Shown here: positions 11,374 to 50,436 of the stretch, piece by piece | Numbering within the stretch: the first letter of the stretch is position 1 | Layout of the letters: each line of letters starts with the position of its first letter | DNA from: an uncultured Patescibacteria group bacterium | GTDB lineage: Bacteria; Patescibacteriota; Microgenomatia; UBA1400; PJMF01 | Assembly (NCBI GenBank): GCA_905478415.1 | Contig: CAJQIG010000001.1 | Coordinates: 245,892-309,891, forward strand | Length of the DNA: 64,000 nt | Direction of reading: 5' to 3' | Translations under genes and position numbers: made by a program | Notes under the pieces: generated by a model | The model's input: only the letters and a program-made list of their open reading frames with translations | Databases searched by the model: none | Told to the model about the DNA's origin: nothing

Positions 11374-13965
11374 ATGTCTATTGATTTAACCTCAATACAA
11401 TTAAAACTTCCTACCAAATACATTCCATCAGTTAATTGGTCTCTCATCTTATCGTTTTTAGTTCCCACCTTTTTAATATTATTTTTTATAGTAATTATTT
11501 TCCTTTCTATCAGGTCATACTTAATCTACCAAGTAATAAAATCTCCTCACACACTCCTAGAAATAAAACCTCCTAAAGAAACAGAGCAAAGTCCATACTC
11601 AACTCAACAACTTTTTAATTTATTCCATAGCATTGCTAATCAAAAATCTTTTATTGAGAGGTTATTTAAAATTAAACAGCCACTCTCATTTGAAATAGTA
11701 TCTACAAAAGAAGATGGAATTCGTTATGTAATCCGAGTCAAAAGTGATCTGGCTAGTTTAGTTAAAAACAGCTTAATATCTTATCTCTCAGGAATTGAAG
11801 TTAAAACTACCAGTGAGTATCTTGAATCAGATAATCTCAAGACAACCATTAGTGAACTAAGACTTTCAAATAATTTTGTTCTACCACTCAAAACTCATGA
11901 AACATTAGAAAAGAATGATCCTATTGCTTACCTCACTGGAAACATGACTAAATTAAAACCTAGTGATTTAATGGTTTATCAAGTTATAGTAGCTCCCGTT
12001 AGTAAAAAATCTATTCCAGAGGTTTCTAGAATTTCCAAACTTATTGCTTCTAAAAAAGATTTGAAATCAAACATAAATAAGCAATTTTCACTCTTTGGTT
12101 ACCTACATATTTTTATTGGTTTAGTTTTACAAATAGTACTTCTACCAATTGGCATACTAGTTTTTATTGCCACTGATGGCAAAGAAGGACCACTACTTTC
12201 ATTGCCACTAATAACTGAAAAAATAGGAAACTCTAATCCATATCAAAGTGAAATGGAAAGTCTAATAAAACAAAAACTAGATCAACAATTATTCTCAGTT
12301 TCAATCAGAGTGTTAACTCACTCTAAATCAAAGAAACGACATAAGGGTTTTCTTTCTTCACTAACTTCAATGACAAATACTCAGTATCAATCACTAAAGC
12401 TAATATTCAAGCCAAACATAAAAATAATCAAACAACTTAAGTTCTACTTATTCAGAAATAGATTTATACTCCCACTAAACAAAACCATTCTTTCCTCCTC
12501 AGAGCTTGGAGATCTATATCATTTTCCATTTACCAGAACTACCAAAACAGAAGACATGCAGAAACAATTTAGTAAAGAGCTTCCTGCACCTCTATCACTA
12601 AAGAAAGCTCATAAGTTAGATATTACTTTTGCTAAAAACACTTACGGAGGTGCTATTACAGCAATAGGACTAACTGAAGATGAACGAAGACGGCACATGT
12701 ACATCTTGGGAGCCACAGGAACAGGTAAATCTACCATGCTTCTATCTATGATTAACTCTGACCTTAAAAATAATAAAGGCTTAGCAGTACTTGATCCTCA
12801 TGGAGATTTAATTGAAGAAATTTTAAATATTATTCCAGAAAATAGAATCAAAGATGTTGTTTATTTTAACCCCGATGATATTGCTTATCCTATTGGAATC
12901 AACTTACTGGAATTATCTAAAGGCTTAAGTGATGATGAGGCTCTAAGAGAAAAAGAATTTGTAACTGAAAGTATTATTTCTCTATTTCATAAAGTATATG
13001 GTGAAAAATATTCTGGACCAAGATTAGAGTATATTTTAAGAAATGCTATTCATACAGCTTTTACAGTACCAGGTGCTACCTTATTTACTGTTAACAAACT
13101 TCTTATAAATACCAAGTTTAGAAAGTCAGTTGTTAAAAACTTAGATGATGAAAACTTAAAAGAATTCTGGAAACAAGAGTTTGCAAAAGCAGGTGACTAT
13201 CAAAAAGTTAAAATGATTCTGCCTATCACTAACAAAATTGGTAGGTTCTTATTTTCTCCAACTGCTAAAAGAATTTTAGAACAAGAAAAATCTACTATCG
13301 ACTTTGATGAAATAATGAACGAGGGTAAGATCTTACTTTGCAATTTATCTAAAGGAAAGATTGGAGAAGATAATTCTAAAGTACTTGGTATTGTTATTAT
13401 GGCAAAACTACAGTTAGCTTCTTTAAAACGAGCTAGAATACCTGCAGATAAAAGAAAAGATTTTTATCTCTATGTTGATGAATTTCAAAACTTTGCTACA
13501 GAATCATTTGCTCAAATACTCTCAGAAGCTAGAAAGTATAAGCTTGGTGCTATTCTGGCTCATCAAACAACTTCACAACTAGAAGATAAATCATTAGTTA
13601 ATGTGACATTGGCAAATACTGGTACAGTAATTTGTTTTAGAACTGCTAACCCTGAAGATGAAAAATTAATACTGCCCCAGTTTAGACCATATGTAGAACA
13701 AGGAGAGATTGCTAGTTTACCTTCGTACAGGTTCTACATGAGACTAGGTGCTCTTAATCCTGAAGCTCCTTTCTCTGGGATTACTATGCCTGTGGAAATT
13801 AAACAAAATAAAGAACTTGTTCAAAAGGTTGTTGAGTCTTCTAGAAAGAAATATGCTATTAAGTATGTTGAGCCAACTAAAAATCAAAAGAGTTATAGAT
13901 ATACACCAAATATTAAAAAAAATACTAAACTAAAAGAAAATACTGGATATTCTATATTACCCTAA
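11374..13965 (+). CDS. Type IV secretion coupling protein (VirD4/TraG/TraD-like P-loop ATPase) with an N-terminal membrane anchor
   Basis: N-terminal TM helices (LILSFLVPTFLILFFIVIIFLSI), Walker A YILGATGTGKST, and Walker B DFYLYVDEFQNF. Size is 863 aa. Confidence 0.8.
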   Translation: MSIDLTSIQLKLPTKYIPSVNWSLILSFLVPTFLILFFIVIIFLSIRSYLIYQVIKSPHTLLEIKPPKETEQSPYSTQQLFNLFHSIANQKSFIERLFKIKQPLSFEIVSTKEDGIRYVIRVKSDLASLVKNSLISYLSGIEVKTTSEYLESDNLKTTISELRLSNNFVLPLKTHETLEKNDPIAYLTGNMTKLKPSDLMVYQVIVAPVSKKSIPEVSRISKLIASKKDLKSNINKQFSLFGYLHIFIGLVLQIVLLPIGILVFIATDGKEGPLLSLPLITEKIGNSNPYQSEMESLIKQKLDQQLFSVSIRVLTHSKSKKRHKGFLSSLTSMTNTQYQSLKLIFKPNIKIIKQLKFYLFRNRFILPLNKTILSSSELGDLYHFPFTRTTKTEDMQKQFSKELPAPLSLKKAHKLDITFAKNTYGGAITAIGLTEDERRRHMYILGATGTGKSTMLLSMINSDLKNNKGLAVLDPHGDLIEEILNIIPENRIKDVVYFNPDDIAYPIGINLLELSKGLSDDEALREKEFVTESIISLFHKVYGEKYSGPRLEYILRNAIHTAFTVPGATLFTVNKLLINTKFRKSVVKNLDDENLKEFWKQEFAKAGDYQKVKMILPITNKIGRFLFSPTAKRILEQEKSTIDFDEIMNEGKILLCNLSKGKIGEDNSKVLGIVIMAKLQLASLKRARIPADKRKDFYLYVDEFQNFATESFAQILSEARKYKLGAILAHQTTSQLEDKSLVNVTLANTGTVICFRTANPEDEKLILPQFRPYVEQGEIASLPSYRFYMRLGALNPEAPFSGITMPVEIKQNKELVQKVVESSRKKYAIKYVEPTKNQKSYRYTPNIKKNTKLKENTGYSILP

Positions 13966-14980: not shown

Positions 14981-15751
14981 ATGGATACTACAATCACTCC
15001 AAAACAACTTGAAATCCTCATACTCATATATCGTTTCCGTTTCCTAAACAGAACTCAAGTACAAACACTCCTTAATCATAAAGACCCCAAACGAATAAAT
15101 ACCTGGCTCAAAGATCTAACTGATAAAAATATCCTCGGTAGAATCTATTCAACAAAGATAAAAGAAAACACCAAGCCAGCGATATATTACCTTGCTACTA
15201 AATCTAGAAAAATATTACTAGAACAACCAAATACTCACGAAAAGACTTTAAACAGAGCCTACAGAGATAAAAATGCCTCTCAGAAACTAATAGAGCACTC
15301 TGTTTTTACAGCTTCAATCTATTTACTACTTAAACAACAAGCCAAAGAAACAGAAACTAAGCTTAACTTTTTTACAAAGACTGATCTAAAAACTCACTAC
15401 TATCTGCCATACAAAAGACCTGATGCTTATATTGCCCTTGAAAAAGATAATCAAATAAAAAGATATTTTCTTGAAATTATTGATGAGGGTACTCCTCGGT
15501 TTATGATTAGGAAAAAAATATCACAGTATATTGAGTACTTTGATGAAGAAATATGGACAAACAGAACTTTACACGATAACCCTTCCTTACTATTCATTTG
15601 CCCAAACCATAACACTAAAGTCTTTCTCTATAAACACATTGCACAAGTCTTGGAGGAAGAGACTTCAGATTTACAATTTTTTTTAAGTCTAAAGTCAGAC
15701 ATTCAAGCCGAGGGTATTACTGCTAATACTTGGAAACTTGTTATGGAATAA
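14981..15751 (+). CDS. Replication-relaxation (Replic_Relax) family protein; putative relaxase-like DNA-processing protein of the element
   Basis: Pattern LEILILIYRFRFLNRTQVQTLL...KRINTWLKDLTDKNIL...AIYYLATKSRKIL...HSVFTASIYL...PDAYIALE...YFLEI matches PF13814-type proteins found with monoderm T4SS. Confidence 0.55.
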   Translation: MDTTITPKQLEILILIYRFRFLNRTQVQTLLNHKDPKRINTWLKDLTDKNILGRIYSTKIKENTKPAIYYLATKSRKILLEQPNTHEKTLNRAYRDKNASQKLIEHSVFTASIYLLLKQQAKETETKLNFFTKTDLKTHYYLPYKRPDAYIALEKDNQIKRYFLEIIDEGTPRFMIRKKISQYIEYFDEEIWTNRTLHDNPSLLFICPNHNTKVFLYKHIAQVLEEETSDLQFFLSLKSDIQAEGITANTWKLVME

Positions 15752-23862: not shown

Positions 23863-25296
23863 TTACTTTTCTACTATAACAACCGTTAACATACCTGCTT
23901 CAGCATGCTCTAAAATATGACAGTGACTAACCCAAGTCCCTTCATCCAAGGGGACTACTCCTATATCAATAACCTCCTTCGATTTAATCAAAACAGTATC
24001 CCTCAAATATGGTTCATCTACTGGTTGACCATTTCTTGCAAGAACTTTAAAGAATTGTCCATGTAAATGCATAGGATGCAGCCTTGAAGAAACATTTGTA
24101 AAACGTATCACATTAAATTTACCTTTTTTAAGGGTAATTGGGTCGTAATCTGGATATGCCTTACCATTTATTGTCCATTCAATACCATATTTTCCACCTC
24201 TTCTAGCATCTAAAACATACTCGTGATCAATTTTTAGTGCATTAGTAGTACTACTCCAATCTGGGAACATAGCAGCTACAGGAATATTAAAGGACTTTAC
24301 TTCATTACTAACAGCTCCATCTACTAAAATATTAACTAGGTTATTAGTTTCTCTAGTAAAGGTATCACGAATACGATAGGTTTTTTTTTGAGATACTTGA
24401 GGAATTCTAATATCAACATCAACTCTGTTTCCAGGGGCAATTTCAAATCCTTGTACTGCAAACGGTTCTTTTGCAAGCATACCGTCTACTGCAAAGCCTT
24501 TTATATCTAAAGCACCAAAATCAAGTTTGTAAATTCGTGCATTTGAAGTATTAACAAATCTCAACCTCAATCTTTCACCTGCTTTAGCATCAATAGTGTA
24601 ATTCGGCATACCATTAACTGTAATAATATTACCCCAACGGCCATCATGCATTAAATCTCCACCAGTATTAAAACGTGGATCAATTTGTCCACTCTGGTCG
24701 ATTCTCCAATCATCCAACACTATAATTTTATCTTGGTCATATTTAGGCTCAGTAGGGTCTTCTACAACAATAGTTCCATACAAGCCTCTTTCTACCTGCT
24801 CACTCCCTCTAACATGAGGATGGTACCAAAAAGTACCAGCATCTTTAGGAGCAAACTCATAGACAAAACTTTCGCCTGGCTTAATAGGCTCTTGAGTTAC
24901 ACCGGGTACTCCATCCATTGCATTAGGAACCCTTATTCCGTGAAAATGTATTGTCGTCTCTTGTGGCAGATTATTTGTGAAGTTAATTTTAAGAGTATCT
25001 CCTTTTTCAACACGAAGTTCAGGTCCAGGCACTTGCCCATTATAAGTCCACACATCAAGATCATCACCTTCAAAAAAGTTTAATTTTCCTATCTCGGCAG
25101 ATAAAGTAAACTCTTTAACTACCCCTGTAGTTTCAATATCTTCTGGGTATGCTGCCCCAAAGTTTGGCAAATATCCTCCATTTATATTCTGATTAATGAC
25201 TTTTATTACAGTAAAAGATAGTAAAAATAAAGCAATTATCAAAAAACTGTATTTGAAAAATACTTTTATTGAATGTTTTTGACTGCTACCTATCAT
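23863..25296 (-). CDS. Multicopper oxidase (CueO/CopA/laccase family), copy 1
   Basis: All four MCO copper motifs are present: HFHG, YHPH, HPMHLHG and HCHILEHAEAGM. N-terminal signal/TM. Roughly 75% identical to the paralogue at 45705-47132 (estimated by eye). Confidence 0.9.
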   Translation of the reverse strand: MIGSSQKHSIKVFFKYSFLIIALFLLSFTVIKVINQNINGGYLPNFGAAYPEDIETTGVVKEFTLSAEIGKLNFFEGDDLDVWTYNGQVPGPELRVEKGDTLKINFTNNLPQETTIHFHGIRVPNAMDGVPGVTQEPIKPGESFVYEFAPKDAGTFWYHPHVRGSEQVERGLYGTIVVEDPTEPKYDQDKIIVLDDWRIDQSGQIDPRFNTGGDLMHDGRWGNIITVNGMPNYTIDAKAGERLRLRFVNTSNARIYKLDFGALDIKGFAVDGMLAKEPFAVQGFEIAPGNRVDVDIRIPQVSQKKTYRIRDTFTRETNNLVNILVDGAVSNEVKSFNIPVAAMFPDWSSTTNALKIDHEYVLDARRGGKYGIEWTINGKAYPDYDPITLKKGKFNVIRFTNVSSRLHPMHLHGQFFKVLARNGQPVDEPYLRDTVLIKSKEVIDIGVVPLDEGTWVSHCHILEHAEAGMLTVVIVEK

Positions 25297-25311
25297 TAAT
25301 TTTTACCCATC

Positions 25312-25743
25312 TTATTTTTCAAGTTCCTCTTTTAATAATTTCAGTTCTTTAGTGGTATTATTCAATGCTCTTAATAGTTTACTTTCAACTTCTATGGCAA
25401 TTTTGGAAATTTCTAAATTGCTTGAAAGAGTTAAAGCAGCAGTCGGCTTCATCATACTAATAAAAGTGCTTCCATTTTCTTCGTACAAAATTACATTACA
25501 CGGAAGTAGTAACCCTATCTCTTTTTCAGCTTGTAGTGCTTTATAAGCATTTGGAGGATTACATGCTCCTAGTATCATATACTTAGAATAATCAATATTT
25601 AGCTTTCTTTTCAGTGTTTCTTGAACATCAATTTGAGTAAGAATCCCAAAACCTTCTTGATTTAATGAATCAACTATTGATGCCAAAGCGCTAGAAAAAT
25701 CACCTTGGTATTTTTTTGTTATGTAATATGTTGCTTTTTTCAT
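25312..25743 (-). CDS. DUF302-domain protein (metal-resistance-associated), copy 1
   Basis: EGFGILTQIDVQETLKRKLN...MILGACNPPNAYKAL. Paralogue of 50437-50835. Confidence 0.6.
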   Translation of the reverse strand: MKKATYYITKKYQGDFSSALASIVDSLNQEGFGILTQIDVQETLKRKLNIDYSKYMILGACNPPNAYKALQAEKEIGLLLPCNVILYEENGSTFISMMKPTAALTLSSNLEISKIAIEVESKLLRALNNTTKELKLLKEELEK

Positions 25744-26134: not shown

Positions 26135-26467
26135 ATGAAAAAATTAGTATTCCTCCAAAGTCTAGTACTCACTTCGTTAGTAATGGCTTCACCAGTCTTT
26201 GCTCAATCTGCAGAAGTTGGTCAAATTCAATCCTTTATCCAAGAAGTTATTCAAATTATGGTTACTCTCTCGGGATTCATTGCAGCTGGTTTTATTGTTT
26301 GGGGTGGAGTTGGATACATAACTAGTTCTGGAAATCCAGAAAGCTTAGAAAAATCTAAAAAAACAATTCTCTATTCAGCCATTGGTCTTACTTTAGTCTT
26401 GAGTGCTTTTGTGATTTCAAACATGGTTAGCCAAGTTGCAACAACAGCTTTTGGTTCAGGGATGTAA
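26135..26467 (+). CDS. VirB2/TrbC-like conjugative pilin (signal peptide plus two hydrophobic helices)
   Basis: MKKLVFLQSLVLTSLVMASPVFAQS signal, then IMVTLSGFIAAGFIVWGGVGYITSSGNPESLEKSKKTILYSAIGLTLVLSAFVI. An AAAGGG SD precedes the ATG at 26135. The 26120 call uses a TTG start. Confidence 0.55.
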   Translation: MKKLVFLQSLVLTSLVMASPVFAQSAEVGQIQSFIQEVIQIMVTLSGFIAAGFIVWGGVGYITSSGNPESLEKSKKTILYSAIGLTLVLSAFVISNMVSQVATTAFGSGM

Positions 26468-26495
26468 TTTAGATAAATAAGGGATAACAATATTG

Positions 26496-27794
26496 ATGAG
26501 CAAAGTACTTACAGGTATATGGACAGCTACACTTACATTCTTTCTATTTAGTTCTCCTGTTTTTGCTCAAAGTACCAACCCTGACATTATTCAATACACT
26601 ACAGATACATTACAAATAATAACTTTAATCGCGACCGCATCAGCGGTCTTTTTTTTAGTTAAAGCAGGCTATGTCTACATGACTTCTGCTGGAAAACCAG
26701 AAGCTTTAGAGTCAGCCAAAAAGACCATTAAAAACGCAGTTGTTGGACTCACTATCGTCTTAGCTGCTAATGTTGTTACCTCAGTATTCCAACACGCTTT
26801 TGACTCACAAAATAGTCTTGGTAGTGGCACACCTGTTGATCTGGTCACTATCCAAACTGTTGAGCCAAGTGAGGGTTTAACTCAGGTCTTGATTGACGCA
26901 GTAGCTGGATTTATCCAAAACATTGTTGAAAGCTCTACTGAACCAGTTGTAAATGGAGTATTTGGTTATCTAACAACCACACCAACTCTGCTTGATAACG
27001 AAGTAGTGCGTAATTTTTGGTTTATTACTGTTGGGATAGTGGATGCTTTATTTATCTTAGTTGTGGCTCTAATGGGACTACAAGTTATGAGTGCTAGTAC
27101 TTTTGGCTTTGAAGAAGTTGAAATTAAACAACTCCTGCCAAAACTAGGTATAACTTTTCTTGGTGCGAATATTTCTTTATTCCTGGCTGACTACGCCATC
27201 ATTACCTGTAACACCTTAGTGAAAGTAATTCTTGATTCCACAGGCGGACTCAATCACGCATGGATAGAAAGTGCTTTTAATCCTACTGCTGTCATTACTG
27301 GAACCACACCACTAATTATTTTAATCTTCATGGTTTTGTTTTTAATTGTCTCGATTGTATTACTCCTGATGTACATTAGTCGCCTTATTTTTATTTCCCT
27401 TGGTGCAGTTTTATCTCCATTTATCTTTTTACTCTCTGCTTTGCCTAAATTTTCAGACTTTGCATTTATTGCAGTAAAGACATACCTTGTGAGTGTTTTT
27501 ATAGTGTTTGTTCATGTGGTTATTATTCAATTGGCTAGCTCGTTTTTAACTCTTCCAGATCATAGCGAGAACTCGCTTATTTCTATTGCAGTGGGAATTG
27601 GATTGTTTATTACTTTACTCAAAACCCCAAACCTGATGATGCAAATGGTTATGTATACCTCAAATTCTGGAGCGATGAAAAAACTAGGAAACCAGATTAT
27701 TAATGTTATGACTACAGACAATGCATCTGTTGCTAGCAGAGCCCAGGCTCAAGGCACAGCCTCCAAATTAACAAGAAAGGCAATAAAACTATGA
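26496..27794 (+). CDS. Fusion protein: N-terminal VirB2-like pilin module joined to a VirB6/TrbL-like polytopic membrane domain
   Basis: Residues 1-100 are paralogous to the preceding pilin (KAGYVYMTSAGKPEALESAKKTIKNAVVGLTIVLAANVV versus GGVGYITSSGNPESLEKSKKTILYSAIGLTLVLSAFVI). The remaining 330 aa contain at least five TM helices, as in VirB6. Confidence 0.5.
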   Translation: MSKVLTGIWTATLTFFLFSSPVFAQSTNPDIIQYTTDTLQIITLIATASAVFFLVKAGYVYMTSAGKPEALESAKKTIKNAVVGLTIVLAANVVTSVFQHAFDSQNSLGSGTPVDLVTIQTVEPSEGLTQVLIDAVAGFIQNIVESSTEPVVNGVFGYLTTTPTLLDNEVVRNFWFITVGIVDALFILVVALMGLQVMSASTFGFEEVEIKQLLPKLGITFLGANISLFLADYAIITCNTLVKVILDSTGGLNHAWIESAFNPTAVITGTTPLIILIFMVLFLIVSIVLLLMYISRLIFISLGAVLSPFIFLLSALPKFSDFAFIAVKTYLVSVFIVFVHVVIIQLASSFLTLPDHSENSLISIAVGIGLFITLLKTPNLMMQMVMYTSNSGAMKKLGNQIINVMTTDNASVASRAQAQGTASKLTRKAIKL

Positions 27795-28303
27795 GAAGCC
27801 AAGTAATACCTGCTCAAATAACCACAGTGGAAGATAAGATTGCGGGTAATTTTAGTTTAACTCAAATAATGTTACTACTCTTACCAGTTTTAATTGCCTC
27901 GTTTATCTATGCTTTCCTACCTCCAAGTATGAACTTTGTAATCTACAAGCTTGTTTTAGCAGGAATCTTTGCTGTTTTGAGTATTACTTTAGCCATTCGA
28001 ATCAAAGGCAGAATTATTGCCAGCTGGCTAGTAGTTTTATTTCGATATAACCTGCGACCAAAGTACTATGTTTACAGCAAAAATTCAGTAACTCAAAGAA
28101 AAATCATCAAACCTAAACTAGAAAAAGTTGTAGAAGAGAAAGATTTTGATGTTATTGAAACTAACAAGACAAAAACTCTAACTCCAAGTCTTAAAGATCT
28201 TCTTCAAATCAACCATATTCTCAACACCACAGACTTTAATTTAATCTACCGAACTGGAAAGAAAGGAGGACTTAATGTGGCTTTTGAAAAAATCTCTAAA
28301 TAA
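27791..28303 (+). CDS. Small two-TM membrane protein, VirB3-like by position (immediately upstream of VirB4)
   Basis: Two hydrophobic helices (IMLLLLPVLIASFIYAFL, LVLAGIFAVLSITLAI). Overlaps the start of the VirB4 N-terminal ORF. Confidence 0.4.
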   Translation: MRSQVIPAQITTVEDKIAGNFSLTQIMLLLLPVLIASFIYAFLPPSMNFVIYKLVLAGIFAVLSITLAIRIKGRIIASWLVVLFRYNLRPKYYVYSKNSVTQRKIIKPKLEKVVEEKDFDVIETNKTKTLTPSLKDLLQINHILNTTDFNLIYRTGKKGGLNVAFEKISK

Positions 28304-28895
28304 AATTAGCTCTCGGAACCAAATTGCTATCAAAGAGGTACGTGATGGAATTTTAGTTTTACCTAACAACAAGCATCGTTTAATTATTGAAACCTCATCG
28401 GTAAACTTTGAGCTCAAAAGTGAGGTTGAACAAGATGTGCTGATTGATAGCTTTCAGACCTTTCTAAACTCATTGCCTAGCCAACTTCAAATCTTGATTC
28501 GTATTCGTGAAGTTGATATTGATCAGTATGTTGACTCTATCGAAATACTAAAACAAACAGAAAACAATCCCAAATATTTGGAACAAATTGATGACTACAC
28601 CCAGTTTATTAGGCAACTTGTATCTGGAAATAAAATATTATCTCGAAAATTCTATATTGTGCTCCCATATAAACCAAATAATAACAAAAACGCCTTTGAT
28701 CTTGCCAAAACACAACTAACTTTGACACAAGATATGGTGATAAAAGCTTTAGAAAAACTAGGCATGAAAGCTAGAACTCTAAGTAGTCTAGAAGTACTCA
28801 ACCTCTTCTATAGTTTTTATAACAAAGACCAAATCAAAACTCAGGAACTTAATCAAACAATTATGAAATCACTTTTACAACATAACTATGTTTAA
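28275..28895 (+). CDS. VirB4/TrbE-family ATPase, N-terminal segment (206 aa) as a separate ORF
   Basis: Perfect SD AAAGGAGGA 5 nt upstream. Sequence IKEVRDGILVLPNNKHRLIIETSSVNFELKSEVEQDVLIDSFQTFLNSL matches the N-terminal region of monoderm VirB4 (PrgJ/TraE-like). Ends with a TAA that overlaps the next ATG (ATGTTTAA). Confidence 0.6.
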   Translation: MWLLKKSLNKISSRNQIAIKEVRDGILVLPNNKHRLIIETSSVNFELKSEVEQDVLIDSFQTFLNSLPSQLQILIRIREVDIDQYVDSIEILKQTENNPKYLEQIDDYTQFIRQLVSGNKILSRKFYIVLPYKPNNNKNAFDLAKTQLTLTQDMVIKALEKLGMKARTLSSLEVLNLFYSFYNKDQIKTQELNQTIMKSLLQHNYV

Positions 28896-30702
28896 CACTA
28901 TTCAAATAAACTACCAAAACTTACAAAAATGGAAATCTAAACGCCTGCGAAAATATCGTGCAAAACAAGAAAAAAAACGTAGAGAAAAACTTTCTCTACA
29001 ATTTAGTTTTGGCGAACAAGACCAAGTGGATATGATTTCGTACTCAGGACTTATGGAAGAGTCTACCTATGTACAAATTGGCGATACCTTTGTAAGAACT
29101 CTATTTATTTCAGGCTATCCTTATGTAGCTAATGTTGGTTGGCTGAATATGTTGATCAACTTTAATCATGACCTTGATATTTCATACCATATTGAACATG
29201 TTGATCCCTTAATGGCTCTGCCTAAACTAAATCGCAAAATCACAGAACTTGAATCCACTAAAAGAACCATGCTTAAGGCAGGAAAAGTAATTGGTTCTGA
29301 GATCACAGACCCACTTGAGTCTGCCATGGAGCTAAAAGATAAAATCCAACGAGGCCAGGAGAAACTCTTTCAAATTTCCATCTACATGACTCTGAGTGCC
29401 ACAAGTTTTGAAGAACTGAACAAGACTACTCAAGTTTTGGAAACAATCATGGCTTCTAGAATGTTTTATATCAAGTCTGCCACCTTTCAACAGCTTGAAG
29501 GTCTGCAATCTATTCTGCCACGAGGAGAAAATTTACTTAATCAAAAAAGAAATCTAGATAGTTCAAGCGCTGCTTTAACTTTCCCATTTGTTTCATCAGA
29601 ACTAGTCCAAGAATCTGGTATTTTGTATGGCATTAACAAATCAAATAACTCGTTGGTTATTGTTGACAGATTTTCTCTCAATAATGCTAACTCAATTATC
29701 TTTGCTCAATCAGGGAGTGGTAAAAGCTACATTGCTAAAGTTGAGATTTTAAGACAACTCATGCAACAAACCAAAGTCATAGTGATTGACCCAGAGCGAG
29801 AATACAAACAGCTAGCAAAATCTATTGGTGGTACTTATATACGAATGTCAGCAACTTCAAAAGAAAAAATTAACCCTTTTGATTTTTCACTCAAGACTGT
29901 AACAGGACAAAATGGTCTTGCCGAACACATCCAAGATCTAACCGAGATTATTTCCCTGATGGCAGGCTCACTATCTGATGAAGAGCGAGCTGTGGTAGAT
30001 AAAGCCTTGATAAAAACATACAAACAGTTTGGCATCACCATGCGTAAACAAAAATATGAGGGGAAAATAAAATTTCCACTGTTAAAAGACTTTTATAAAA
30101 CGCTTAAAGCCATGAAACAAAAAGATCTATGCCACAGACTAGATAAGTTTGTGACTGGTTCACTATCTAGTGTATTTACCTCCCAAACCAACGTAGACCT
30201 CTCAAACCGACTTGTTGTCTTTGATATCAAAGATCTAGATGAATCCTTGAGACAAATCATGATTTTAGCCACTGCTAACTTTGTACACTCAGAGGTTAAA
30301 TCAAATCCTCAAAAACGAATCCTCGTGATCGATGAAGCTTGGTTGCTATTGCAACACGAAGAAAGTGCTCGGTTTTTAGCAGGCTTAGTAAGACGTGCTC
30401 GTAAACATTACTTAGGTGTCACTCTAATTTCCCAGCAAGCAAACGACTTTTTAAATCAAGAATATGGTAGAGCCATTGCCTCACAATCATCACTAAGAAT
30501 ATTGATGAAACAGGACACTACTTCTATCAAGAAAGTTGTCCAAGAGTTCAACTTAAGTGAATATGAACAGCAATTTTTACTAACCTGTGATCGAGGTGAG
30601 GCTCTAATTATTGCAGACCAAAATCATGTGGCGGTAAAAATTATAGCTTCTAAAAAAGAACACCCAATGCTTACCACTGATCCGAAAGACTTATACTTAT
30701 AA
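28888..30702 (+). CDS. VirB4/TrbE-family conjugation ATPase, C-terminal 604 aa with Walker A and B motifs
   Basis: Walker A FAQSGSGKSY and Walker B RILVIDEAWLL, plus the conserved middle region (FISGYPYVANVGWLNMLINFNHDLDISYHIE). No SD precedes this ATG, which suggests a frameshift or split within one VirB4 gene. Confidence 0.85.
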   Translation: MFNTIQINYQNLQKWKSKRLRKYRAKQEKKRREKLSLQFSFGEQDQVDMISYSGLMEESTYVQIGDTFVRTLFISGYPYVANVGWLNMLINFNHDLDISYHIEHVDPLMALPKLNRKITELESTKRTMLKAGKVIGSEITDPLESAMELKDKIQRGQEKLFQISIYMTLSATSFEELNKTTQVLETIMASRMFYIKSATFQQLEGLQSILPRGENLLNQKRNLDSSSAALTFPFVSSELVQESGILYGINKSNNSLVIVDRFSLNNANSIIFAQSGSGKSYIAKVEILRQLMQQTKVIVIDPEREYKQLAKSIGGTYIRMSATSKEKINPFDFSLKTVTGQNGLAEHIQDLTEIISLMAGSLSDEERAVVDKALIKTYKQFGITMRKQKYEGKIKFPLLKDFYKTLKAMKQKDLCHRLDKFVTGSLSSVFTSQTNVDLSNRLVVFDIKDLDESLRQIMILATANFVHSEVKSNPQKRILVIDEAWLLLQHEESARFLAGLVRRARKHYLGVTLISQQANDFLNQEYGRAIASQSSLRILMKQDTTSIKKVVQEFNLSEYEQQFLLTCDRGEALIIADQNHVAVKIIASKKEHPMLTTDPKDLYL

Positions 30703-31320
30703 ATGCATGCCATATTTACTGCACACACCATCTGGTCATTTAGAAAAGAACTTCAGTTTGTAGCTTTTGCCTTTTTAGTTTTAATTTCATTACCAATTAT
30801 TGCTGTAATTATTTTGACTCACACTGGAGTAAATATTGTTTCGGATGCTTTGATCGATGTTAATCCAGAATCTCAAACTATCCAAATTAAAAATCCAGCA
30901 GATGGAACAGTTGTAAAAGAAGTATCAAAGGAAGTGGCATGGCCAGTACAAGGTGTCACAACACTTGAGTTCGCCAAATCAAGTGGTTACCAAAAATTCC
31001 ATGCGGGAATAGATATTGCAAATTCACAAGGAAAAGTTGGTGATAAAATCACCCCATTTATGGAGGGAACTGTTATTTACGAAGGTGAAATATTTTGGGG
31101 TTATGGAAAACATGTGATTATTGATCATGGTGATAACATCACTTCTCTCTATGCTCATCTTAATAGAATTCAGGTTTTTAAAGGACAAAAAGTAAATGTG
31201 GGTGATACTATCGGAAATATGGGTAGCACTGGTTGGTCTACGGGGCCTCACTTGCATTTTGAGGTGAGGGTTTATGGGGTGCCGGTGAATCCGAAGGCGA
31301 TATTACAAGATACAAACTAG
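30703..31320 (+). CDS. M23-family (LytM-like) peptidoglycan endopeptidase with an N-terminal TM anchor; T4SS cell-wall hydrolase
   Basis: HAGIDIA ... GDTIGNMGSTGWSTGPHLHFEV, the HxxxD and HxH zinc motifs of peptidase M23. Confidence 0.85.
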   Translation: MHAIFTAHTIWSFRKELQFVAFAFLVLISLPIIAVIILTHTGVNIVSDALIDVNPESQTIQIKNPADGTVVKEVSKEVAWPVQGVTTLEFAKSSGYQKFHAGIDIANSQGKVGDKITPFMEGTVIYEGEIFWGYGKHVIIDHGDNITSLYAHLNRIQVFKGQKVNVGDTIGNMGSTGWSTGPHLHFEVRVYGVPVNPKAILQDTN

Positions 31321-31343: not shown

Positions 31344-34300
31344 ATGGATTTAAAAAAAATTGATTTTAAACATTTAGCTCCAAAGACTGGGGATCAACGT
31401 ACTTCTTTTGAAGAATTATGTTGTCAGATTGCTTTGTATTCAGATAATGTACCCAAAGACAGTAAACCACATCGCCTAAGGGGTGATGGTGGTGATGGTG
31501 GTGTTGAATTTTACTGGGAGCTTCCGAATGGTGAAGAGTGGGGATGGCAAGCAAAATATGTGTTTGATTTAGGTAAGGTTAAAACTCAAGCTAAAAAATC
31601 GTTTGAGACTGCGATGGTAGTTCATCCAAGATTAACACGTTATTTTATTTGTATACCTTTTGATTTAACTGGAAATACAAAAAGGGGGAAAGGTGAAACG
31701 GAAAAGTGGGAGGAATTTAAAAAGGAATTAGAGCAACTAGCAAAAAATGAGAAACGAAAAATAGAGGTAGTGCTAGAACAACGTTTTGAGCTCCTTGATA
31801 AGTTGCTCCAAATGGATCCTTCTTTGGGAAGAATTAGATTCTGGTTCGAAAAAGATTTATTTAGTGAAAAGTGGTTTGGAGAGCATGTAGCAACCACAGT
31901 GAATAATATTCCTAGATACACTCCCAAACTTAAGGTTGATACGGATTTATTTAGAAAGCTAATGGCATTCACTCAGACTGGTGGTTGGGCGGATGGTTTA
32001 AAAAAGATTTATGAGGAATTTAAAGATAAAGCATATTATTGGTCTTCCACTGTGGAAACAAAAGATGACAAAGGTTGGGGTGCAAAATTTCCCGAAGAGT
32101 TGGTTGAGCGGGGAAAGGTTAGTGTTGATAAGGTCAATGTTGTTAAAAAGGTCATTGAGGACCTCTTGGTACAAGAGATAGTCCCCAGTGATGTCACTGC
32201 GTTGTTAAATCAAATTGACGACGCAACCACATATTTAAGGGAGCTTTCTAGAGATATTCGGGCTCAACTCGTGGAACAGCACGGTGAGGCTGCAGTTGAA
32301 TCAGCTAATTTTAGACAATGGAATGCTGAATGGATGGTGAGCTTTCCGATGGCTAATTTAGACTCAAGTAAAGATTTAATAAATCTACTAGAACAAGTAA
32401 GACTCTGGGTTAAAGAAAACTATATCGATTTATATAACTCAAAACTTCTTTTGCTAACTGGAGGATGGGGTGTGGGCAAAACTTTTGCTATTTGTGACTT
32501 GGCTGAACTGAGAAGAGTAAACAAGCAGCTAACTGTTTTGTTGTTTGGAGATGGCTTTATCGGTGGTACTGAGCCATGGGTCAAGATTCAAGAGCAGCTA
32601 GGGATTAATTTTGACTCCAAAGAAGCACTATTTGAGGCACTAGAGACAAGTGCAGAAACCTCAGGTTTTCCCTTATTGTTGTGCATTGACGCAATAAACG
32701 AAACAGAACCTAAAAGCTACTGGCAGAAAAAGTTGAGATTATTGGCAGCAGAGATAGAAAAGTATCCAAACTTAAATCTTTGTGTATCCTGTAGAACATC
32801 ATATAAGGATTATTTAGTTAGGGATGAGGTTGGTTTCATTGAAGCGAAGCATCCGGGATTCAAGGGAATTGAAAATGAAGCAGTCAATGCTTTTTTTAAT
32901 CATTTTGGCATCAAACCTCCATCGACGCCAATTATTCATCCTGAGTTTTCTAACCCATTGTTTCTAAAACTTGTCTGTCAAACTTTGCAGGCAAAAGGGC
33001 TGAAACAAATGCCAAAAGGCTGGCAGGGAATTAACACGGTAATACAGGCGTTTTTAGATAATAAAAATAGAGAATACGGTGAACAAAATGGGATAGATAA
33101 ACGGCATAAAATACCAGAGAAGGCACTCCAGTCTTTCGTTGGTGAGGCAAAGAGATTGCAAAAATCACTTCTTACTTGGGATGAAGCAAATACTGCAGTA
33201 GGTGCTGTATTGAAAGAGTCGGGAGTTGAAAATAGCACAAAAACCCCCTTGCTGGATTGGCTTATTGATGAGCATCTTTTGTTTGTTGATGCGGCACCTG
33301 CTGGTAGCAATAAGGAGAGAGAGCATGTCAGGATATCATTTGAAAGGTTGGGAGATCATCTGCTTGCATCCAGCTTTATTGAAGGCAAGGATGAATCAAA
33401 TTTAAAGAAGGATTTTTTGAGTGAAGGTGATTTAAATTTCCTTGTGGCTGATGCCAGCAGCATAGAGTCGAATCGGGGGCTATTAGAAGCTCTTTCGATT
33501 CAAATACCAGAAAGATTTAATTTGGAACTGAGCGATATTGTAGAAAATGATATTTTGGTTCAAATATCTGATCTGGTTATAGAACAACTTCACTGGCGAG
33601 ACCCTTCATATTTTGGCTCAAAAACTAAAATTCTAATTAATCGTGCTTTAAGAAATCAGAAGTCTTATCTAGCATTTGATGCACTTTTACTCAGTTCCTT
33701 TACTCCTTCTGACATAGATGCTTATTTCTTAGATGATTTGTTAAGAGCTAAGACAATGATTCAAAGGGACCCTTATTGGTGTGGTTATTTGTATTCGAGA
33801 TATGGTGACAATGAAGAGGGTAAAGATCTAGTCAAGAGAATACTTAACAACTCATTAAATCAAGAAATTCAGAATATACCTGAAGATCGTTTGGAAAGAT
33901 GGTGTATCACTTTAGGTTGGTTTTGTGCTGCAGCTGATAGAAGAATCAGAGATGGGGCAACCAAGGCATTAATCAATATAACTCAGACTAATCCAGCGAT
34001 ATGGGAAAAACTACTGAAACATTTTGGATCACTTGATGACGACTATATTATTGAAAGAACGTTAGCTGCAGCTTATGGCGTGTTACTTCTAACTAGACAT
34101 AAACCCACAGAAAAGAAACTAGCGAAAGTGGTAGACAATGTAATTTTTTCAAAAGTTGAAGTAATACACAACGCCGTTATAAGAGACTATGCTCGTTGTA
34201 TCATCGAATTGGCTATTTTGGATAAGGCAATGGCAAAAAAAGATGTCAAAAATGCCTTCTTAACTCCATATGCAAGTGATCCAAAACTGTTAAGAATCCC

Positions 34301-35552
34301 GAGTGATAAGGAAATTGAGGATGCTGAGCCGTTAGTGGAAAAGACAAAGCTGAAACTAAGTTGCTTTAGTGATGATTTTTTTAATTACACACTCGGATCG
34401 TTACGCCAATATGATCATTTTATGAATAAGAAAAATATGGCTAAGTGGGTTTTTATTCACATAGTGAACTTGGGTTATAGTAGGGCTAATTTTGAAAACT
34501 ATGAAGGTTACATGATGTTCACTCATGGTGGAGGGAGAGGTAAGCCAATTTGGGCTGAGAGAATAGGTAAGAAATACCAATGGATGGCTTTATTTAGATT
34601 GGCAGGCTTATTATCTGACAATGTAGAAATTAAGGCTGATAGTTGGGAACCGGAGCCATTGGTAACTCCACTTTCATTTGAGCGTGGTAGGCAGATTGAC
34701 CCATCAATACTAGTTAAAGAGCCTCAAACCCAAGCCTTTTACGATGACGACTTGTTTTGCAGATATAATTTTGATTTAAAAGAAAAATTATCTGATGAGG
34801 AATGGATTAAGTTTAAAGATGATCTGCCAACATTTGGCGATATTCAGAAAGATCACGGGGGAAAAGACCATATTCTGCTTAATGGACATATGGATCAGTC
34901 TAATAAAGGTGAGTTTGATAAATCAAACAGCAAACATCGAAGGTTTTGGATGTTAATTGATAGCTACCTCGTGAATCAGGATGATATAGAAAAAGCATGG
35001 AATTGGTTGTCTAAAAAGAACTTTATGGGAAGATGGATGCCAGATGGTGCAGAACATCATGATGGTTTCATAGGAGAATATCCATGGGGTACTCCCTTCA
35101 ATATCTACAAAGACTCCTATCTTAGCTATGGTCGGGACCCAGATAATGAAAAGTTTCCTTGTACTTTTTTTCCTACTGACGCAACTTTGCACTCGAGCGA
35201 AGAATATGATTCCTCAGGGCATAGCAATTTTGTTATAAAGGTTCCATCAAAGATTTTTTTTGAGAAAAGTAAACTTGAATGGAACAATGTTGACGGGTAT
35301 AAGTCTGGCAACAAACTTGTTTTTTTAGATCCTTCAATTTGCTCAAAAAGGAAAGGTGCACTTTTGGTGGAAAAAAAGTACTTAAGGAATTTTCTAGATA
35401 AAAATGGTTACGTTTTGATTTGGACTGTATTGGCTGAAAAATTAATAATGGGGATTGATAACAGCTTCATCCGACAAACATTTAACCAAATTCATTTGTT
35501 AAATAACAAAGGAGAATTTGAATCTTCAGTACCCAATATACTAGTAAAGTAA
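31344..35552 (+). CDS. 1402-aa NACHT/STAND-like P-loop NTPase with an N-terminal restriction-endonuclease-like (PD-D/ExK-type) domain and a roughly 950-aa C-terminal sensor-like region
   Basis: Walker A LLLLTGGWGVGKTF (about aa 370), Walker B LLLCIDAINE, and a sensor-like CVSCRTS. The N-terminus GDGGDGGVEFYWE...EEWGWQAKY resembles D...(E/Q)xK nuclease motifs. The long C-terminal region is helical with no recognisable repeats. Confidence 0.7.
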   Translation: MDLKKIDFKHLAPKTGDQRTSFEELCCQIALYSDNVPKDSKPHRLRGDGGDGGVEFYWELPNGEEWGWQAKYVFDLGKVKTQAKKSFETAMVVHPRLTRYFICIPFDLTGNTKRGKGETEKWEEFKKELEQLAKNEKRKIEVVLEQRFELLDKLLQMDPSLGRIRFWFEKDLFSEKWFGEHVATTVNNIPRYTPKLKVDTDLFRKLMAFTQTGGWADGLKKIYEEFKDKAYYWSSTVETKDDKGWGAKFPEELVERGKVSVDKVNVVKKVIEDLLVQEIVPSDVTALLNQIDDATTYLRELSRDIRAQLVEQHGEAAVESANFRQWNAEWMVSFPMANLDSSKDLINLLEQVRLWVKENYIDLYNSKLLLLTGGWGVGKTFAICDLAELRRVNKQLTVLLFGDGFIGGTEPWVKIQEQLGINFDSKEALFEALETSAETSGFPLLLCIDAINETEPKSYWQKKLRLLAAEIEKYPNLNLCVSCRTSYKDYLVRDEVGFIEAKHPGFKGIENEAVNAFFNHFGIKPPSTPIIHPEFSNPLFLKLVCQTLQAKGLKQMPKGWQGINTVIQAFLDNKNREYGEQNGIDKRHKIPEKALQSFVGEAKRLQKSLLTWDEANTAVGAVLKESGVENSTKTPLLDWLIDEHLLFVDAAPAGSNKEREHVRISFERLGDHLLASSFIEGKDESNLKKDFLSEGDLNFLVADASSIESNRGLLEALSIQIPERFNLELSDIVENDILVQISDLVIEQLHWRDPSYFGSKTKILINRALRNQKSYLAFDALLLSSFTPSDIDAYFLDDLLRAKTMIQRDPYWCGYLYSRYGDNEEGKDLVKRILNNSLNQEIQNIPEDRLERWCITLGWFCAAADRRIRDGATKALINITQTNPAIWEKLLKHFGSLDDDYIIERTLAAAYGVLLLTRHKPTEKKLAKVVDNVIFSKVEVIHNAVIRDYARCIIELAILDKAMAKKDVKNAFLTPYASDPKLLRIPSDKEIEDAEPLVEKTKLKLSCFSDDFFNYTLGSLRQYDHFMNKKNMAKWVFIHIVNLGYSRANFENYEGYMMFTHGGGRGKPIWAERIGKKYQWMALFRLAGLLSDNVEIKADSWEPEPLVTPLSFERGRQIDPSILVKEPQTQAFYDDDLFCRYNFDLKEKLSDEEWIKFKDDLPTFGDIQKDHGGKDHILLNGHMDQSNKGEFDKSNSKHRRFWMLIDSYLVNQDDIEKAWNWLSKKNFMGRWMPDGAEHHDGFIGEYPWGTPFNIYKDSYLSYGRDPDNEKFPCTFFPTDATLHSSEEYDSSGHSNFVIKVPSKIFFEKSKLEWNNVDGYKSGNKLVFLDPSICSKRKGALLVEKKYLRNFLDKNGYVLIWTVLAEKLIMGIDNSFIRQTFNQIHLLNNKGEFESSVPNILVK

Positions 35553-35564
35553 TATAATATTCTT

Positions 35565-35771
35565 ATGGCATCACAACAAAAATTCGGACAAAACTTAAGA
35601 GTAGCTAGAAAAAAAGCTAACCTTACCCAACAGCAAATAGCTGACAAAGCTAAAATGCATGTTAATTATTATGCTCGTATTGAGCGTGGTGGGGAAAATC
35701 CTTCTTATGAAGCTCTAGAAAAGATAATTAAGGCCTTAGGCATAAAATCTTCAGAAGTCTTACCATTCTAA
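35565..35771 (+). CDS. XRE-family helix-turn-helix transcriptional regulator (68 aa)
   Basis: LRVARKKANLTQQQIADKAKMHVNYYARIERGGENPSYEALEKIIKALGI is a canonical Cro/C1 HTH. Starts 12 nt after the STAND gene stop. Confidence 0.75.
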   Translation: MASQQKFGQNLRVARKKANLTQQQIADKAKMHVNYYARIERGGENPSYEALEKIIKALGIKSSEVLPF

Positions 35772-35974
35772 CTATCTCTAGTAACTTCACCATCATCAGA
35801 TACTTTTAATTTTCCTGACTTAAGGTCTTCATCTACTTTATCTACTAAAACACCAGCCAACTGCATTAAACCTTTGACTGTTTTGATAGCATTTTCACGA
35901 GTAGCTTTTTTTGGATCTTTTTCCTCAAGCATTTTTAATGCCTTTTGAATTTCTTCTTCTGTTGGTTTTCTCAT
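35768..35974 (-). CDS. Small charged hypothetical protein (68 aa)
   Basis: ORF convergent with the HTH gene, preceded by the palindrome at 35994-36006. Confidence 0.35.
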   Translation of the reverse strand: MRKPTEEEIQKALKMLEEKDPKKATRENAIKTVKGLMQLAGVLVDKVDEDLKSGKLKVSDDGEVTRDS

Positions 35975-36011: not shown

Positions 36012-36467
36012 TTAAATAAATCTCTCGAGTTTTAGAAAATTAAACATCTTCTTAGCATGACCATCACCAATTATTCTACGCATAACTTCTTTACTATTAT
36101 TCTGTGAGAGTATATTTAAACTACCTTCCCACAAAACTTCTCTATCTATAATAGCTAACTTACGGTGATGATTATTTGTAGTTACAAAAACCTGCACACC
36201 AATTCTTTCAAAATATTCAATTACTTCTTCAGCTTGATACCTCATGTCTTTTAAATGTTTCTTTGGATCTCTGGTAATCACATATACCTTTACACCTTTA
36301 GAAATCAGTTTTTCAAAAACAGAACAAAGCTTGAGGGTTCTACCATTTGTAATAAATGGACTTTCAATCACGACTTCACGTTCTGCGTGAAGTAAATCTC
36401 TCTCAAACTGTTTATAAAAAGTTGTCTCGTCAAAAAGTGAAGTTTTAAACATTTTGTTTCTCCTCAT
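36012..36467 (-). CDS. Phospholipase-D-family nuclease (single HKD domain, Nuc/NucT-like endonuclease)
   Basis: HxK(x)4D motif in NNHHRKLAIIDREVLWEGSLN (H-R-K-L-A-I-I-D). Size is about 150 aa, like the pKM101 Nuc protein. Confidence 0.8.
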   Translation of the reverse strand: MRRNKMFKTSLFDETTFYKQFERDLLHAEREVVIESPFITNGRTLKLCSVFEKLISKGVKVYVITRDPKKHLKDMRYQAEEVIEYFERIGVQVFVTTNNHHRKLAIIDREVLWEGSLNILSQNNSKEVMRRIIGDGHAKKMFNFLKLERFI

Positions 36468-38028: not shown

Positions 38029-38051
38029 GATTCTGCGTGGAGTCACATAAA
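38029..38051 (+). repeat. attR-side direct repeat of the tRNA-Glu 3' end (displaced or decayed copy)
   Basis: See the mobile_element entry. The one mismatch would break acceptor-stem pairing, consistent with a non-functional remnant. Confidence 0.65.
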
Positions 38052-45662: not shown

Positions 45663-45704
45663 ATCCCATATTATATCAGAACCTTATCTTAATTAGGAAA
45701 TTTA

Positions 45705-47132: not shown

Positions 47133-47147
47133 TACTATCTAGATTTG

Positions 47148-47636: not shown

Positions 47637-47642
47637 AGTAAT

Positions 47643-49793: not shown

Positions 49794-49841
49794 ACCTTCA
49801 TTATGACGATACTACTGATTGCTGTCATCACCAATGTTTTG

Positions 49842-50423: not shown

Positions 50424-50436
50424 ATCAACCCTCCTG

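Follow-up and report, generated by a model that had tools for sequence, protein, structure and literature searches.

Gene content of the T4SS operon

We analyzed a 64,000-nucleotide stretch of DNA (the window) from an uncultured bacterium of the lineage Minisyncoccota, a synonym of Patescibacteria (contig CAJQIG010000001.1, positions 245,892 to 309,891 of the forward strand), in which six open reading frames (ORFs) on the plus strand encode a type IV secretion system (T4SS). The region from 26135 to 31320 is one operon, the mating-pair-formation core of a Patescibacteria T4SS of monoderm (pGO1/pSK41-like, MPF_FATA) ancestry, and it combines a VirB4 ATPase divided between two genes with a VirB2-like pilin that is continuous with a VirB6-like protein. 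Families were assigned with Pfam and NCBIfam profiles and their curated cutoffs. The features of the operon are as follows, with lengths in amino acids (aa).

26135-26467, plus strand: free VirB2-like pilin, 110 aa (T4SS_pilin, TrbC, and Mbov_0395 profiles; hydropathy)
26496-27794, plus strand: pilin::VirB6-like fusion, 432 aa (T4SS_pilin at aa 39-98; TrbL_4 at aa 128-399)
27791-28303, plus strand: PrgI/VirB3-like protein, 170 aa, two transmembrane helices (Pfam PrgI; hydropathy)
28275-28895, plus strand: TrsD-like protein, 206 aa, the detached N-terminal subdomain of VirB4 (CD1110 and TrsD profiles)
28888-28895, plus strand: stop-start overlap ATGTTTAA (TrsD TAT GTT TAA / VirB4 ATG TTT AAC)
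28888-30702, plus strand: VirB4 ATPase without its first subdomain, 604 aa (P-loop_TraG, AAA_10, DUF87)
30703-31320, plus strand: membrane-anchored M23 peptidase, 205 aa (Peptidase_M23; N-terminal hydrophobic helix)

The genes are tightly packed, with successive junctions of +28, -4, -29, -8, and 0 nucleotides (nt), where negative values are overlaps and positive values are gaps. The product of 26496-27794 is 432 aa long when read from its ATG and 433 aa from a TTG at 26493. The PrgI/VirB3-like protein, whose start overlaps the stop of the fusion gene by 4 nt, scores 27.8 bits against the Pfam PrgI cutoff of 27 and covers positions 2-117 of the NCBIfam profile for a VirB3-VirB4 fusion protein of Mycoplasma integrative conjugative elements (ICEs). 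The M23 gene directly abuts the VirB4 stop and is syntenic in nearly all related loci; its product (Peptidase_M23, E = 9.2e-32), with a hydrophobic helix at the N terminus by hydropathy, takes the role of the VirB1 cell-wall hydrolase. No match to VirB7, VirB9, or VirB10 was found among the larger window ORFs scanned, and the cassette has the composition of a monoderm MPF_FATA-like system, with VirB3, VirB4, VirB6, and a cell-wall hydrolase and without the VirB7/9/10 outer-membrane core.

Comparisons were made with 80 related loci from species-representative genomes, 73 of which hold both TrsD and VirB4. The search that recovered them was built on 12 closer sequences, and the loci are biased to relatives with at least 57% TrsD identity. 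Where labelled, they belong mostly to the Microgenomates group (Pace-, Shapiro-, Davies-, Levy-, Gottesman-, Roizman-, and Woykebacteria and WWE3), and a few carry the labels Saccharibacteria, Nomurabacteria, Micrarchaeota, or Gammaproteobacteria. Across these many candidate-phylum names VirB4 is 68-94% and TrsD 57-86% identical, an indication that either the cassette has spread horizontally or the metagenome-assembled genomes are unreliably labelled. In total there were 2,067 TrsD homologs, with length and identity figures taken from 120 listed, and 958 homologs of the fusion protein, with length figures from 120 listed and profile and conservation checks on 51. Folds were searched against 350,542 PDB chains.

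VirB4 is divided between two conserved genes

The ORFs at 28275-28895 and 28888-30702 correspond to successive parts of one VirB4. On the 752-position NCBIfam CD1110 VirB4 profile, the 206-aa ORF matches positions 11-183 (E = 3.8e-13) and the 604-aa ORF positions 172-733 (E = 1.5e-108; 364 bits, above the cutoff of 325), and the Pfam TraC_F_IV domain is divided between the two. The longer product also matches the Pfam TraG P-loop (1.9e-21), AAA_10, and DUF87, as well as the solved VirB4 C-terminal domain 4AG5 (E = 8e-47), and carries Walker A (AQSGSGKS) and Walker B (ILVIDEAW) motifs; it thus has the P-loop of a VirB4-type ATPase, while the full N-terminal domain is not found on one polypeptide. 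Unsplit proteins confirm the order of the parts: in P0307 (734 aa), residues 8-187 align to the 206-aa ORF and residues 199-732 to the 604-aa ORF, and in P0390 (797 aa, from Candidatus Colwellbacteria) residues 12-213 and then 207-788 align to the two ORFs in turn. We considered whether these fused proteins are artifacts and rejected this, as P0390 recurs on 3 and P0307 on 4 independent contigs; the fission and fusion states therefore both exist within the phylum. From the profiles, the fused proteins, and the fold of the TrsD-like protein described below, we assign the two ORFs to a single VirB4, as an earlier note on this DNA had proposed.

The 206-aa protein is a distant TrsD homolog and not an equivalog, since its match to the TrsD profile NF041427 (E = 1.1e-7) reaches 31.8 bits against a cutoff of 200, yet a profile of its family searched against the transfer proteins of pSK41 matched TrsD alone (2.5e-11). 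The adjoining 604-aa protein matches pSK41 TrsE at 3e-39. The TrsD-like protein has no hydrophobic segment by hydropathy and sits directly 5' of virB4, as the TrsD/TraD family requires. Its AlphaFold2 model (pLDDT of 76) returned TrwK/VirB4 of R388 as all 14 of its best PDB fold matches, and a sequence search against PDB chains gave no match, so that its link to VirB4 rests on family profiles and fold comparison. TrsD is, then, the first VirB4 subdomain encoded as a separate gene, a fission that is fixed in this lineage while fused versions occur in other Patescibacteria. A survey of Patescibacteria counted 2,272 TrsD homologs, 1,664 of which adjoin virB4 (Quinonero-Coronel et al. 2025, PMC12102498), and the division into TrsD and VirB4 is ordinary for the lineage and already published, both for Patescibacteria and for pGO1/pSK41.

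At the junction the first frame reads AAC TAT GTT TAA and the second, in the +1 frame, ATG TTT AAC, which produces the 8-nt overlap ATGTTTAA. A GGAGG lies 7 nt 5' of the TrsD ATG, no Shine-Dalgarno (SD) motif was found 5' of the VirB4 ATG in the window, and the VirB4 frame opens exactly 7 codons before its ATG, after a TGA at 28864-28866. The earlier note had described all of this correctly and had read it as a frameshifted single gene, the result of a sequencing indel or of recoding, a reading that it would give up if homologous elements also carried VirB4 as two genes. They do, and by this standard the reading is refuted. In 73 of 73 related loci TrsD is followed by an approximately 600-aa VirB4 in the +1 frame with an ATG at or near the TrsD stop; the overlap is an 8-nt ATGNNNTRR in 65 of them, 11 nt in 4, and 17-20 nt in 2, and the last 2 (L051 and L066) read TAA-t-ATG without overlap. 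Where the overlap is 8 nt, the first two bases of the start codon come from a TAT codon in 61 loci, from CAT in 3, and from AAT in 1, and because the synonymous NAC is never used, the constraint on the junction acts on the nucleotides and the start codon and not on the amino acid. The 120 listed homologs of the 206-aa protein are all stand-alone proteins of 140-240 aa (nearly all 205-211 aa, at 61-100% identity), and 148 of the 150 best matches among representatives at 50% clustering had fewer than 400 aa.

Two alternatives to a pair of coupled genes have to be weighed against these data. A single VirB4 gene interrupted by an indel, introduced in sequencing or assembly, or by a recent frameshift that inactivated it would agree with the collinearity of the ORFs with full-length VirB4, the missing SD motif of the second, and its frame opening only 7 codons upstream of the ATG. 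Against it, the same split, frame, and junction ATG recur in every one of the 73 loci at TrsD identities of 57-86%, the listed homologs all stand alone at approximately 200 aa, both halves are well conserved as proteins, and the identical 206-aa product was called on 23 contigs, of which the four shown come from four samples; a genuine extra break, found in one assembly only, looks different. We therefore give a broken gene almost no credence. Programmed +1 frameshifting at GTT-TAA, which would yield some full-length TrsD-VirB4 besides or instead of re-initiation, could account for a downstream frame that is always +1, for a shift site that would fall on a stop codon as in prfB, and for the P-site codon, which in most loci is GTT or GCT with T as the next base. 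The universally kept ATG would be needless for such a shift, however, and the two loci without overlap and the variable geometry of the 8 loci outside the common pattern do not suit it; all three stop codons are used (TAA in 57, TAG in 5, and TGA in 3 loci), a Val or Ala tRNA would by codon-anticodon rules mismatch at the first codon position after the slip, and a GGAG-like core, suited to initiation, precedes the VirB4 ATG in 29 of the 65 loci that share the 8-nt overlap (∼45%). A prfB-type frameshift gene was rejected on the ATG in 73/73 loci, the varying geometry, and the three stops, and we consider frameshifting in any form very unlikely.

The conservation of the junction instead indicates stop-start translational coupling of two genes, and not an indel or recoding. 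Ribosomes would end TrsD at the TAA and re-initiate VirB4 at the ATG 5 nt upstream, coupling of this kind would supply the two proteins in roughly equal amounts, and TrsD and VirB4 may then come together non-covalently to rebuild the N-terminal domain through which VirB4 contacts PrgI/VirB3.

In an assembly of essentially the same organism (L082:3614-5427), one of the 23 contigs with the identical 206-aa product, VirB4 has a further break that leaves 166 + 438 aa, and the pilin-VirB6 protein was called 8 residues shorter. In contrast to the conserved TrsD/VirB4 junction, this additional break is probably an assembly indel or a variant.

A pilin module fused to a VirB6-like domain

The 432-aa protein begins with a pilin. 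Its residues 39-98 score 41.1 bits (1.9e-10) with T4SS_pilin, above the cutoff of 26.6, and the free 110-aa pilin encoded upstream scores 47.4 bits (2e-12) with the same profile, matches TrbC at 1e-8, and passes the NCBIfam Mbov_0395 pilin-like family at 41.6 bits against a cutoff of 40 (the pilin family profiles are PF18895 and PF04956). The free and fused modules are 42% identical over 97 residues (E = 4e-18), in an alignment that starts where the signal peptide ends (SPVFAQS) and runs through the second hydrophobic helix, which bears out the paralogy that the earlier note had seen. By hydropathy the free pilin has a signal peptide ending VFA/QS followed by two hydrophobic helices, and both proteins show the predicted cleavable signal peptide, the two hydrophobic helices, and the short basic loop of a pilin; the N-terminal module of the fusion is therefore more than a signal peptide. 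The remainder of the layout, from hydropathy and an AlphaFold2 model (pLDDT of 55), comprises a signal peptide at aa 1-25, a pilin hairpin at approximately aa 29-102, a variable linker at aa 103-127, a conserved extracytoplasmic helix at aa 128-160, five long hydrophobic helices at aa 169-390, and a basic C-terminal tail.

This architecture is conserved. T4SS_pilin is matched by 51 of 51 fusion homologs, in which Ala24 at the predicted SPVFA/Q cleavage site is invariant, and nearly all of the 120 listed homologs are 419-452 aa long and carry PF18895, the few shorter ones resembling fragments. In every complete copy among the 80 related loci the fusion is one ORF between the free pilin and PrgI, and the window protein has no Met between residues 63 and 192, so the VirB6-like part has no ATG start of its own. 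The single-ORF pilin-VirB6 fusion is real and conserved, and the earlier claim that such a fusion is unusual holds in comparison with canonical T4SSs, although within this cassette family it is the rule. Mean identity is 71% among free pilin modules, 56% among fused ones, and 33% between the two types, and the nearest neighbor of each of 134 modules is of its own type (134/134). Free and fused modules are thus two separate old groups on the sequence comparison, and the duplication behind the fused module is ancient. No match to the 432-aa protein was obtained by tblastn among 72,556 plasmids, so the fusion is not visible on sequenced plasmids at that sensitivity.

The tethered module might still be released after translation. 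If the 432-aa protein were a polyprotein, the pilin would be cut off in the linker to serve as a second pilin, leaving no lasting VirB2-VirB6 link, and it is true that residues 103-127 are its least conserved and least confidently modelled stretch and that arrays of divergent pilins are frequent in Patescibacteria (PMC12102498). The linker consensus contains no visible conserved cleavage motif, however, the operon encodes no dedicated protease apart from the M23 cell-wall peptidase, and all related loci retain the fusion one to one, even though a free pilin could just as well be encoded by its own gene. We regard processing of this type as unlikely and a lasting fusion as the better reading.

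The domain that follows the linker is likely VirB6/TrbL-like, as the earlier note had suggested when it described a pilin module continuous with a polytopic VirB6-like domain. In the window protein TrbL_4 covers aa 128-399 (profile positions 4-263 of 276) with E = 0.018 and 14.9 bits against a cutoff of 27, and among the 51 homologs 26 match it at E ≤ 0.01, the best at 1.9e-7. Among pSK41 transfer proteins the only match is TrsL, of the TrbL family (blastp E = 0.002), and NCBIfam gives a weak match to a Firmicutes mobilome membrane family. TrwI/VirB6 is the top fold match in the PDB set. The domain could conceivably be some other conjugation membrane protein, with the true VirB6 encoded elsewhere: the TrbL_4 score of the window protein falls under the Pfam cutoff, the fold match is not significant, and a profile of the 432-aa family searched against PDB sequences returned no VirB6 and only spurious membrane-protein matches such as sarcospan. 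Yet half of the tested homologs match TrbL_4, TrsL is the sole pSK41 match, TrwI/VirB6 leads the fold list, five long helices and a basic C-terminal tail are as in VirB6, and no other polytopic protein is present in the cassette, all of which makes a non-VirB6 identity improbable.

Relation to known systems

The cassette belongs with the Patescibacteria T4SS clade (PMC12102498; Southlakia epibionticum, Wang et al. 2023, PMC10633639), with which it shares VirB4, TrsD beside virB4, PrgI/VirB3, PF18895-type VirB2-like pilins, M23 as hydrolase, and the lack of an outer-membrane core. These two papers treat pilins and VirB6 as separate components, whereas in this cassette the VirB6-like protein is at the same time the second "pilin" of the array. 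The window also departs from most clusters of the survey (PMC12102498) in having genes for a coupling protein, a MOB_C-type protein, and a recombinase no more than approximately 15 kb away from the cassette.

The trs operon of pSK41/pGO1 (Staphylococcus aureus, MPF_FATA) is ordered VirB2-like (CagC family), TrsC, TrsD (227 aa), TrsE/VirB4 (672 aa), TrsF, TrsG, and the window follows the same order of VirB2-like protein, TrsC, TrsD, and TrsE, with the hydrolase TrsG coming after TrsF in pSK41. The systems differ in detail: TrsD and TrsE are 14 nt apart in pSK41 but overlap in the window; TrsL, the VirB6/TrbL homolog, is a separate 305-aa protein encoded far downstream without a pilin module but is fused here; and the hydrolase is CHAP-type there and M23 here.

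Mycoplasma ICEs provide a second point of comparison, as the free pilin of the window passes the Mbov_0395 family cutoff and three window proteins map in order onto the 894 positions of the Mbov_0397 profile NF045975 (PrgI at 2-117, TrsD at 100-287, and VirB4 at 252-889). The three parts are on one polypeptide in Mycoplasma and in three genes in the window, whose proteins score under the cutoff of the Mbov_0397 ATPase profile; the window proteins are relatives and not members. Because they map onto a single Mycoplasma profile, the PrgI, TrsD, and VirB4 modules occur fused, half-fused, and separate in different monoderm lineages. The survey of Patescibacteria (PMC12102498) reported no VirB3-VirB4 fusions. 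A 357-aa metagenomic protein (P0244) with PrgI/VirB3 fused to TrsD is present on a single 1.5-kb contig; it may be an error, and we do not rely on it.

Finally, the R388 proteins TrwI/VirB6 and TrwL/VirB2 (Mace et al. 2022; review PMC12624023) offer a polytopic five-helix VirB6-like domain as the shared element, although similarity of TrwI to the window fusion is weak in both sequence and fold. R388 makes VirB2 and VirB6 as two proteins, with a pentamer of VirB5 capping VirB6 (PMC12624023), whereas the window has a covalent pilin module and no VirB5.

A candidate integrative conjugative element

Further genes in the window suggest that the operon belongs to a mobile element, whose components outside the cassette are as follows.

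9456-9529: tRNA-Glu gene
9482-11047, minus strand: large serine recombinase, 521 aa (Pfam Resolvase, Recombinase, and Zn_ribbon_recom; NCBIfam XisF/CcrB-like)
9511-9533, plus strand: candidate left attachment repeat GATTCTGCGTGGGGTCACCTAAA, at the 3' end of tRNA-Glu
11374-13965, plus strand: VirD4-type coupling protein, 863 aa (TrwB_AAD_bind, 2.8e-10; DUF87; T4SS-DNA_transf; NCBIfam TraD families)
14981-15751, plus strand: Replic_Relax (MOB_C-type) candidate relaxase, 256 aa (PF13814, 1.3e-13; 51.9 bits against a cutoff of 25.3)
35565-35771, plus strand: HTH regulator
35768-35974, minus strand: small ORF
36012-36467, minus strand: PLD-like nuclease (Pfam PLDc_2)
38029-38051, plus strand: candidate right attachment repeat, a partial copy of the tRNA-Glu 3' end

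The repeat GATTCTGCGTGGGGTCACCTAAA, which consists of the last 19 nt of tRNA-Glu plus 4 nt, has a second copy 28.5 kb further downstream that agrees with it at 21 of 23 bases. Between the two copies lie the recombinase, the coupling protein, the relaxase candidate, metal cargo (copper and redox genes fill 15.7-25.7 kb), the T4SS cassette, an Avs2-like gene, and the PLD nuclease. By domain-only assignments the gene block of an ICE is thus present, with a serine recombinase, a type IV coupling protein, a Replic_Relax/MOB_C-type protein, and the cassette; PF13814 has been equated with the MobC relaxase superfamily (PMC5357655). The coupling-protein gene is located approximately 12 kb upstream of the cassette and probably belongs to the same element, and in relatives coupling-protein homologs stand directly 5' of the cassette in L012, L032, and L070 and Replic_Relax homologs 5' of it in L012, L018, L027, L032, and L070. 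The trio of HTH regulator, small ORF, and PLD nuclease recurs 3' of the M23 gene in 20-25 related loci, as well as in L086, L088, and L089, and the flanks in relatives carry restriction-modification, AbiE, DGR, Qat, zinc-uptake, or copper genes. This fits a candidate mobile-element backbone with cargo hotspots, and the window operon is probably the transfer machine of an ICE of approximately 28.5 kb with copper-resistance and Avs2 cargo.

The best explanation overall, which we hold with good though not complete confidence, is a T4SS operon with a fixed TrsD/VirB4 fission and a pilin-VirB6 fusion that probably forms the transfer machine of an ICE. Several points weigh against it. The boundaries of the element depend on a single 21/23 repeat, long direct repeats are not normally generated by serine recombinases, and the recombinase ORF oddly crosses the left repeat into the tRNA. 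The G+C fraction is 0.31-0.39 over positions ∼10000-62000, compared with 0.40-0.44 in the initial 10 kb and 0.41 over the final 2 kb, and because the low-GC block extends well past 38 kb, composition does not support a right boundary there. A scan of metagenome contigs found no empty-site or attR pattern, and no coupling protein or relaxase was found within the 10-kb flanks of L086, L088, and L089. For the cassette itself, the VirB6 assignment is weak in the window protein by its TrbL_4 score of 14.9 bits, the AlphaFold2 model of the fusion is poor and its TrwI/VirB6 fold match has E = 0.94, and we infer re-initiation at the TrsD/VirB4 junction from conservation only.

A further consideration is that T4SSs in this phylum may serve epibionts for purposes other than conjugation. 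The T4SS of Southlakia/Saccharibacteria is essential for epibiotic growth and is not conjugative (PMC10633639), relaxase and coupling protein are absent near most Patescibacteria T4SS clusters (PMC12102498), and the three loci just mentioned lack both within 10 kb, so that the cassette could be a host-interaction or uptake apparatus, as has been proposed for Saccharibacteria, beside which the coupling protein, relaxase, and recombinase are unrelated neighbors or remnants. These three genes lie on the same side of the cassette, however, adjoining a tRNA with a distal repeat; homologs of the coupling protein or relaxase stand directly 5' of the pilin gene in five relatives (L012, L018, L027, L032, and L070); the flanks consist of variable defense, restriction-modification, and metal-resistance cargo, as in mobile elements; and the high VirB4 identity across lineages with different candidate-phylum names suggests horizontal spread. 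An epibiont apparatus is a possibility to be taken seriously but remains, on this evidence, the less likely account, and we prefer a conjugative element.

A 1402-aa ORF at 31344-35552 (plus strand) fills the slot between the M23 gene and the HTH/PLD trio and matches NCBIfam Avs2 (AVAST type 2 anti-phage) with E = 4.7e-230 and 767 bits, below the equivalog cutoff of 1000. In relatives the same slot holds a Qat-like set (KAP NTPase, QatB, and TatD), a zinc-uptake operon, or a 991-aa SMC-like ATPase, which suggests a cargo hotspot. Genes for a multicopper oxidase and DUF302 at 23863-25743, beside the cassette, have diverged second copies, at 72-81% nucleotide identity and approximately 22-25 kb away, in a second copper-resistance cluster (45702-50835) that also encodes a P-type ATPase, DsbA/DsbD, DUF3105, and an M56 peptidase; a similar copper cluster is found directly 5' of the cassette in L089. 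Outside the low-GC block, a 2107-aa ORF at 628-6951 (minus strand) with beta-helix, NosD-like, and several Ig-like/fn3 domains is probably a giant surface protein.

Possible role and implications of the fusion

VirB2 has both termini outside the membrane, and VirB6 has its N terminus outside and its C terminus inside. The fusion is topologically consistent, because the VirB2 C terminus and the VirB6 N terminus that it joins are both outside: once the signal peptide is cleaved, the pilin module would form a membrane hairpin with its C terminus outside, running into the outside-facing VirB6 N terminus. VirB6 is described as a pentamer under a pilus of five-fold symmetry and as the proposed docking and assembly site for VirB2, whose recruitment is placed, as a proposal, at the transmembrane interface of VirB3 and VirB6 (PMC12624023). 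Because the VirB6 pentamer sits under a five-fold pilus, five tethered pilin modules could form a built-in first layer, and in a system without VirB5 such a layer might anchor or seed polymerization of the free 110-aa pilin. We offer as a tentative proposal, possible rather than probable, that the tethered VirB2 modules in the VirB6 pentamer are the first five-fold pilin layer, a fixed assembly intermediate, and that this would explain the seemingly missing VirB6 of Microgenomatia.

VirB6 homologs are reported to be scarce in Microgenomatia, where VirB2 arrays are especially abundant (PMC12102498). Both observations would be expected if PF18895 counted the fusion as a pilin while VirB6 profiles overlooked it, and the fusion is probably the reason why VirB6 has seemed scarce in this group. 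We found no mention of a VirB2-VirB6 fusion in the open-access T4SS literature searched, including PMC12102498, PMC10633639, and a 2025 nomenclature review; judged from this text, the fusion is apparently an undescribed variant within a described system.

These findings have several implications for Patescibacteria and their secretion systems. Short stop-start overlaps without an SD sequence should not be taken for assembly errors in these genomes. In a phylum in which conjugation is doubted, the association of a coupling protein, a MOB_C-type relaxase candidate, a recombinase, and swappable cargo provides a concrete candidate for a self-transmissible element. Current models of pilus assembly build on a transient VirB2-VirB6 contact that has been inferred, and here, with 958 homologs, both partners are fixed in one polypeptide, a natural one-to-one complex that structural biologists could express, model, and image. 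The fusion is in this respect of moderate interest to T4SS structural biology, and it probably corrects the published impression of Microgenomatia as a group without VirB6.

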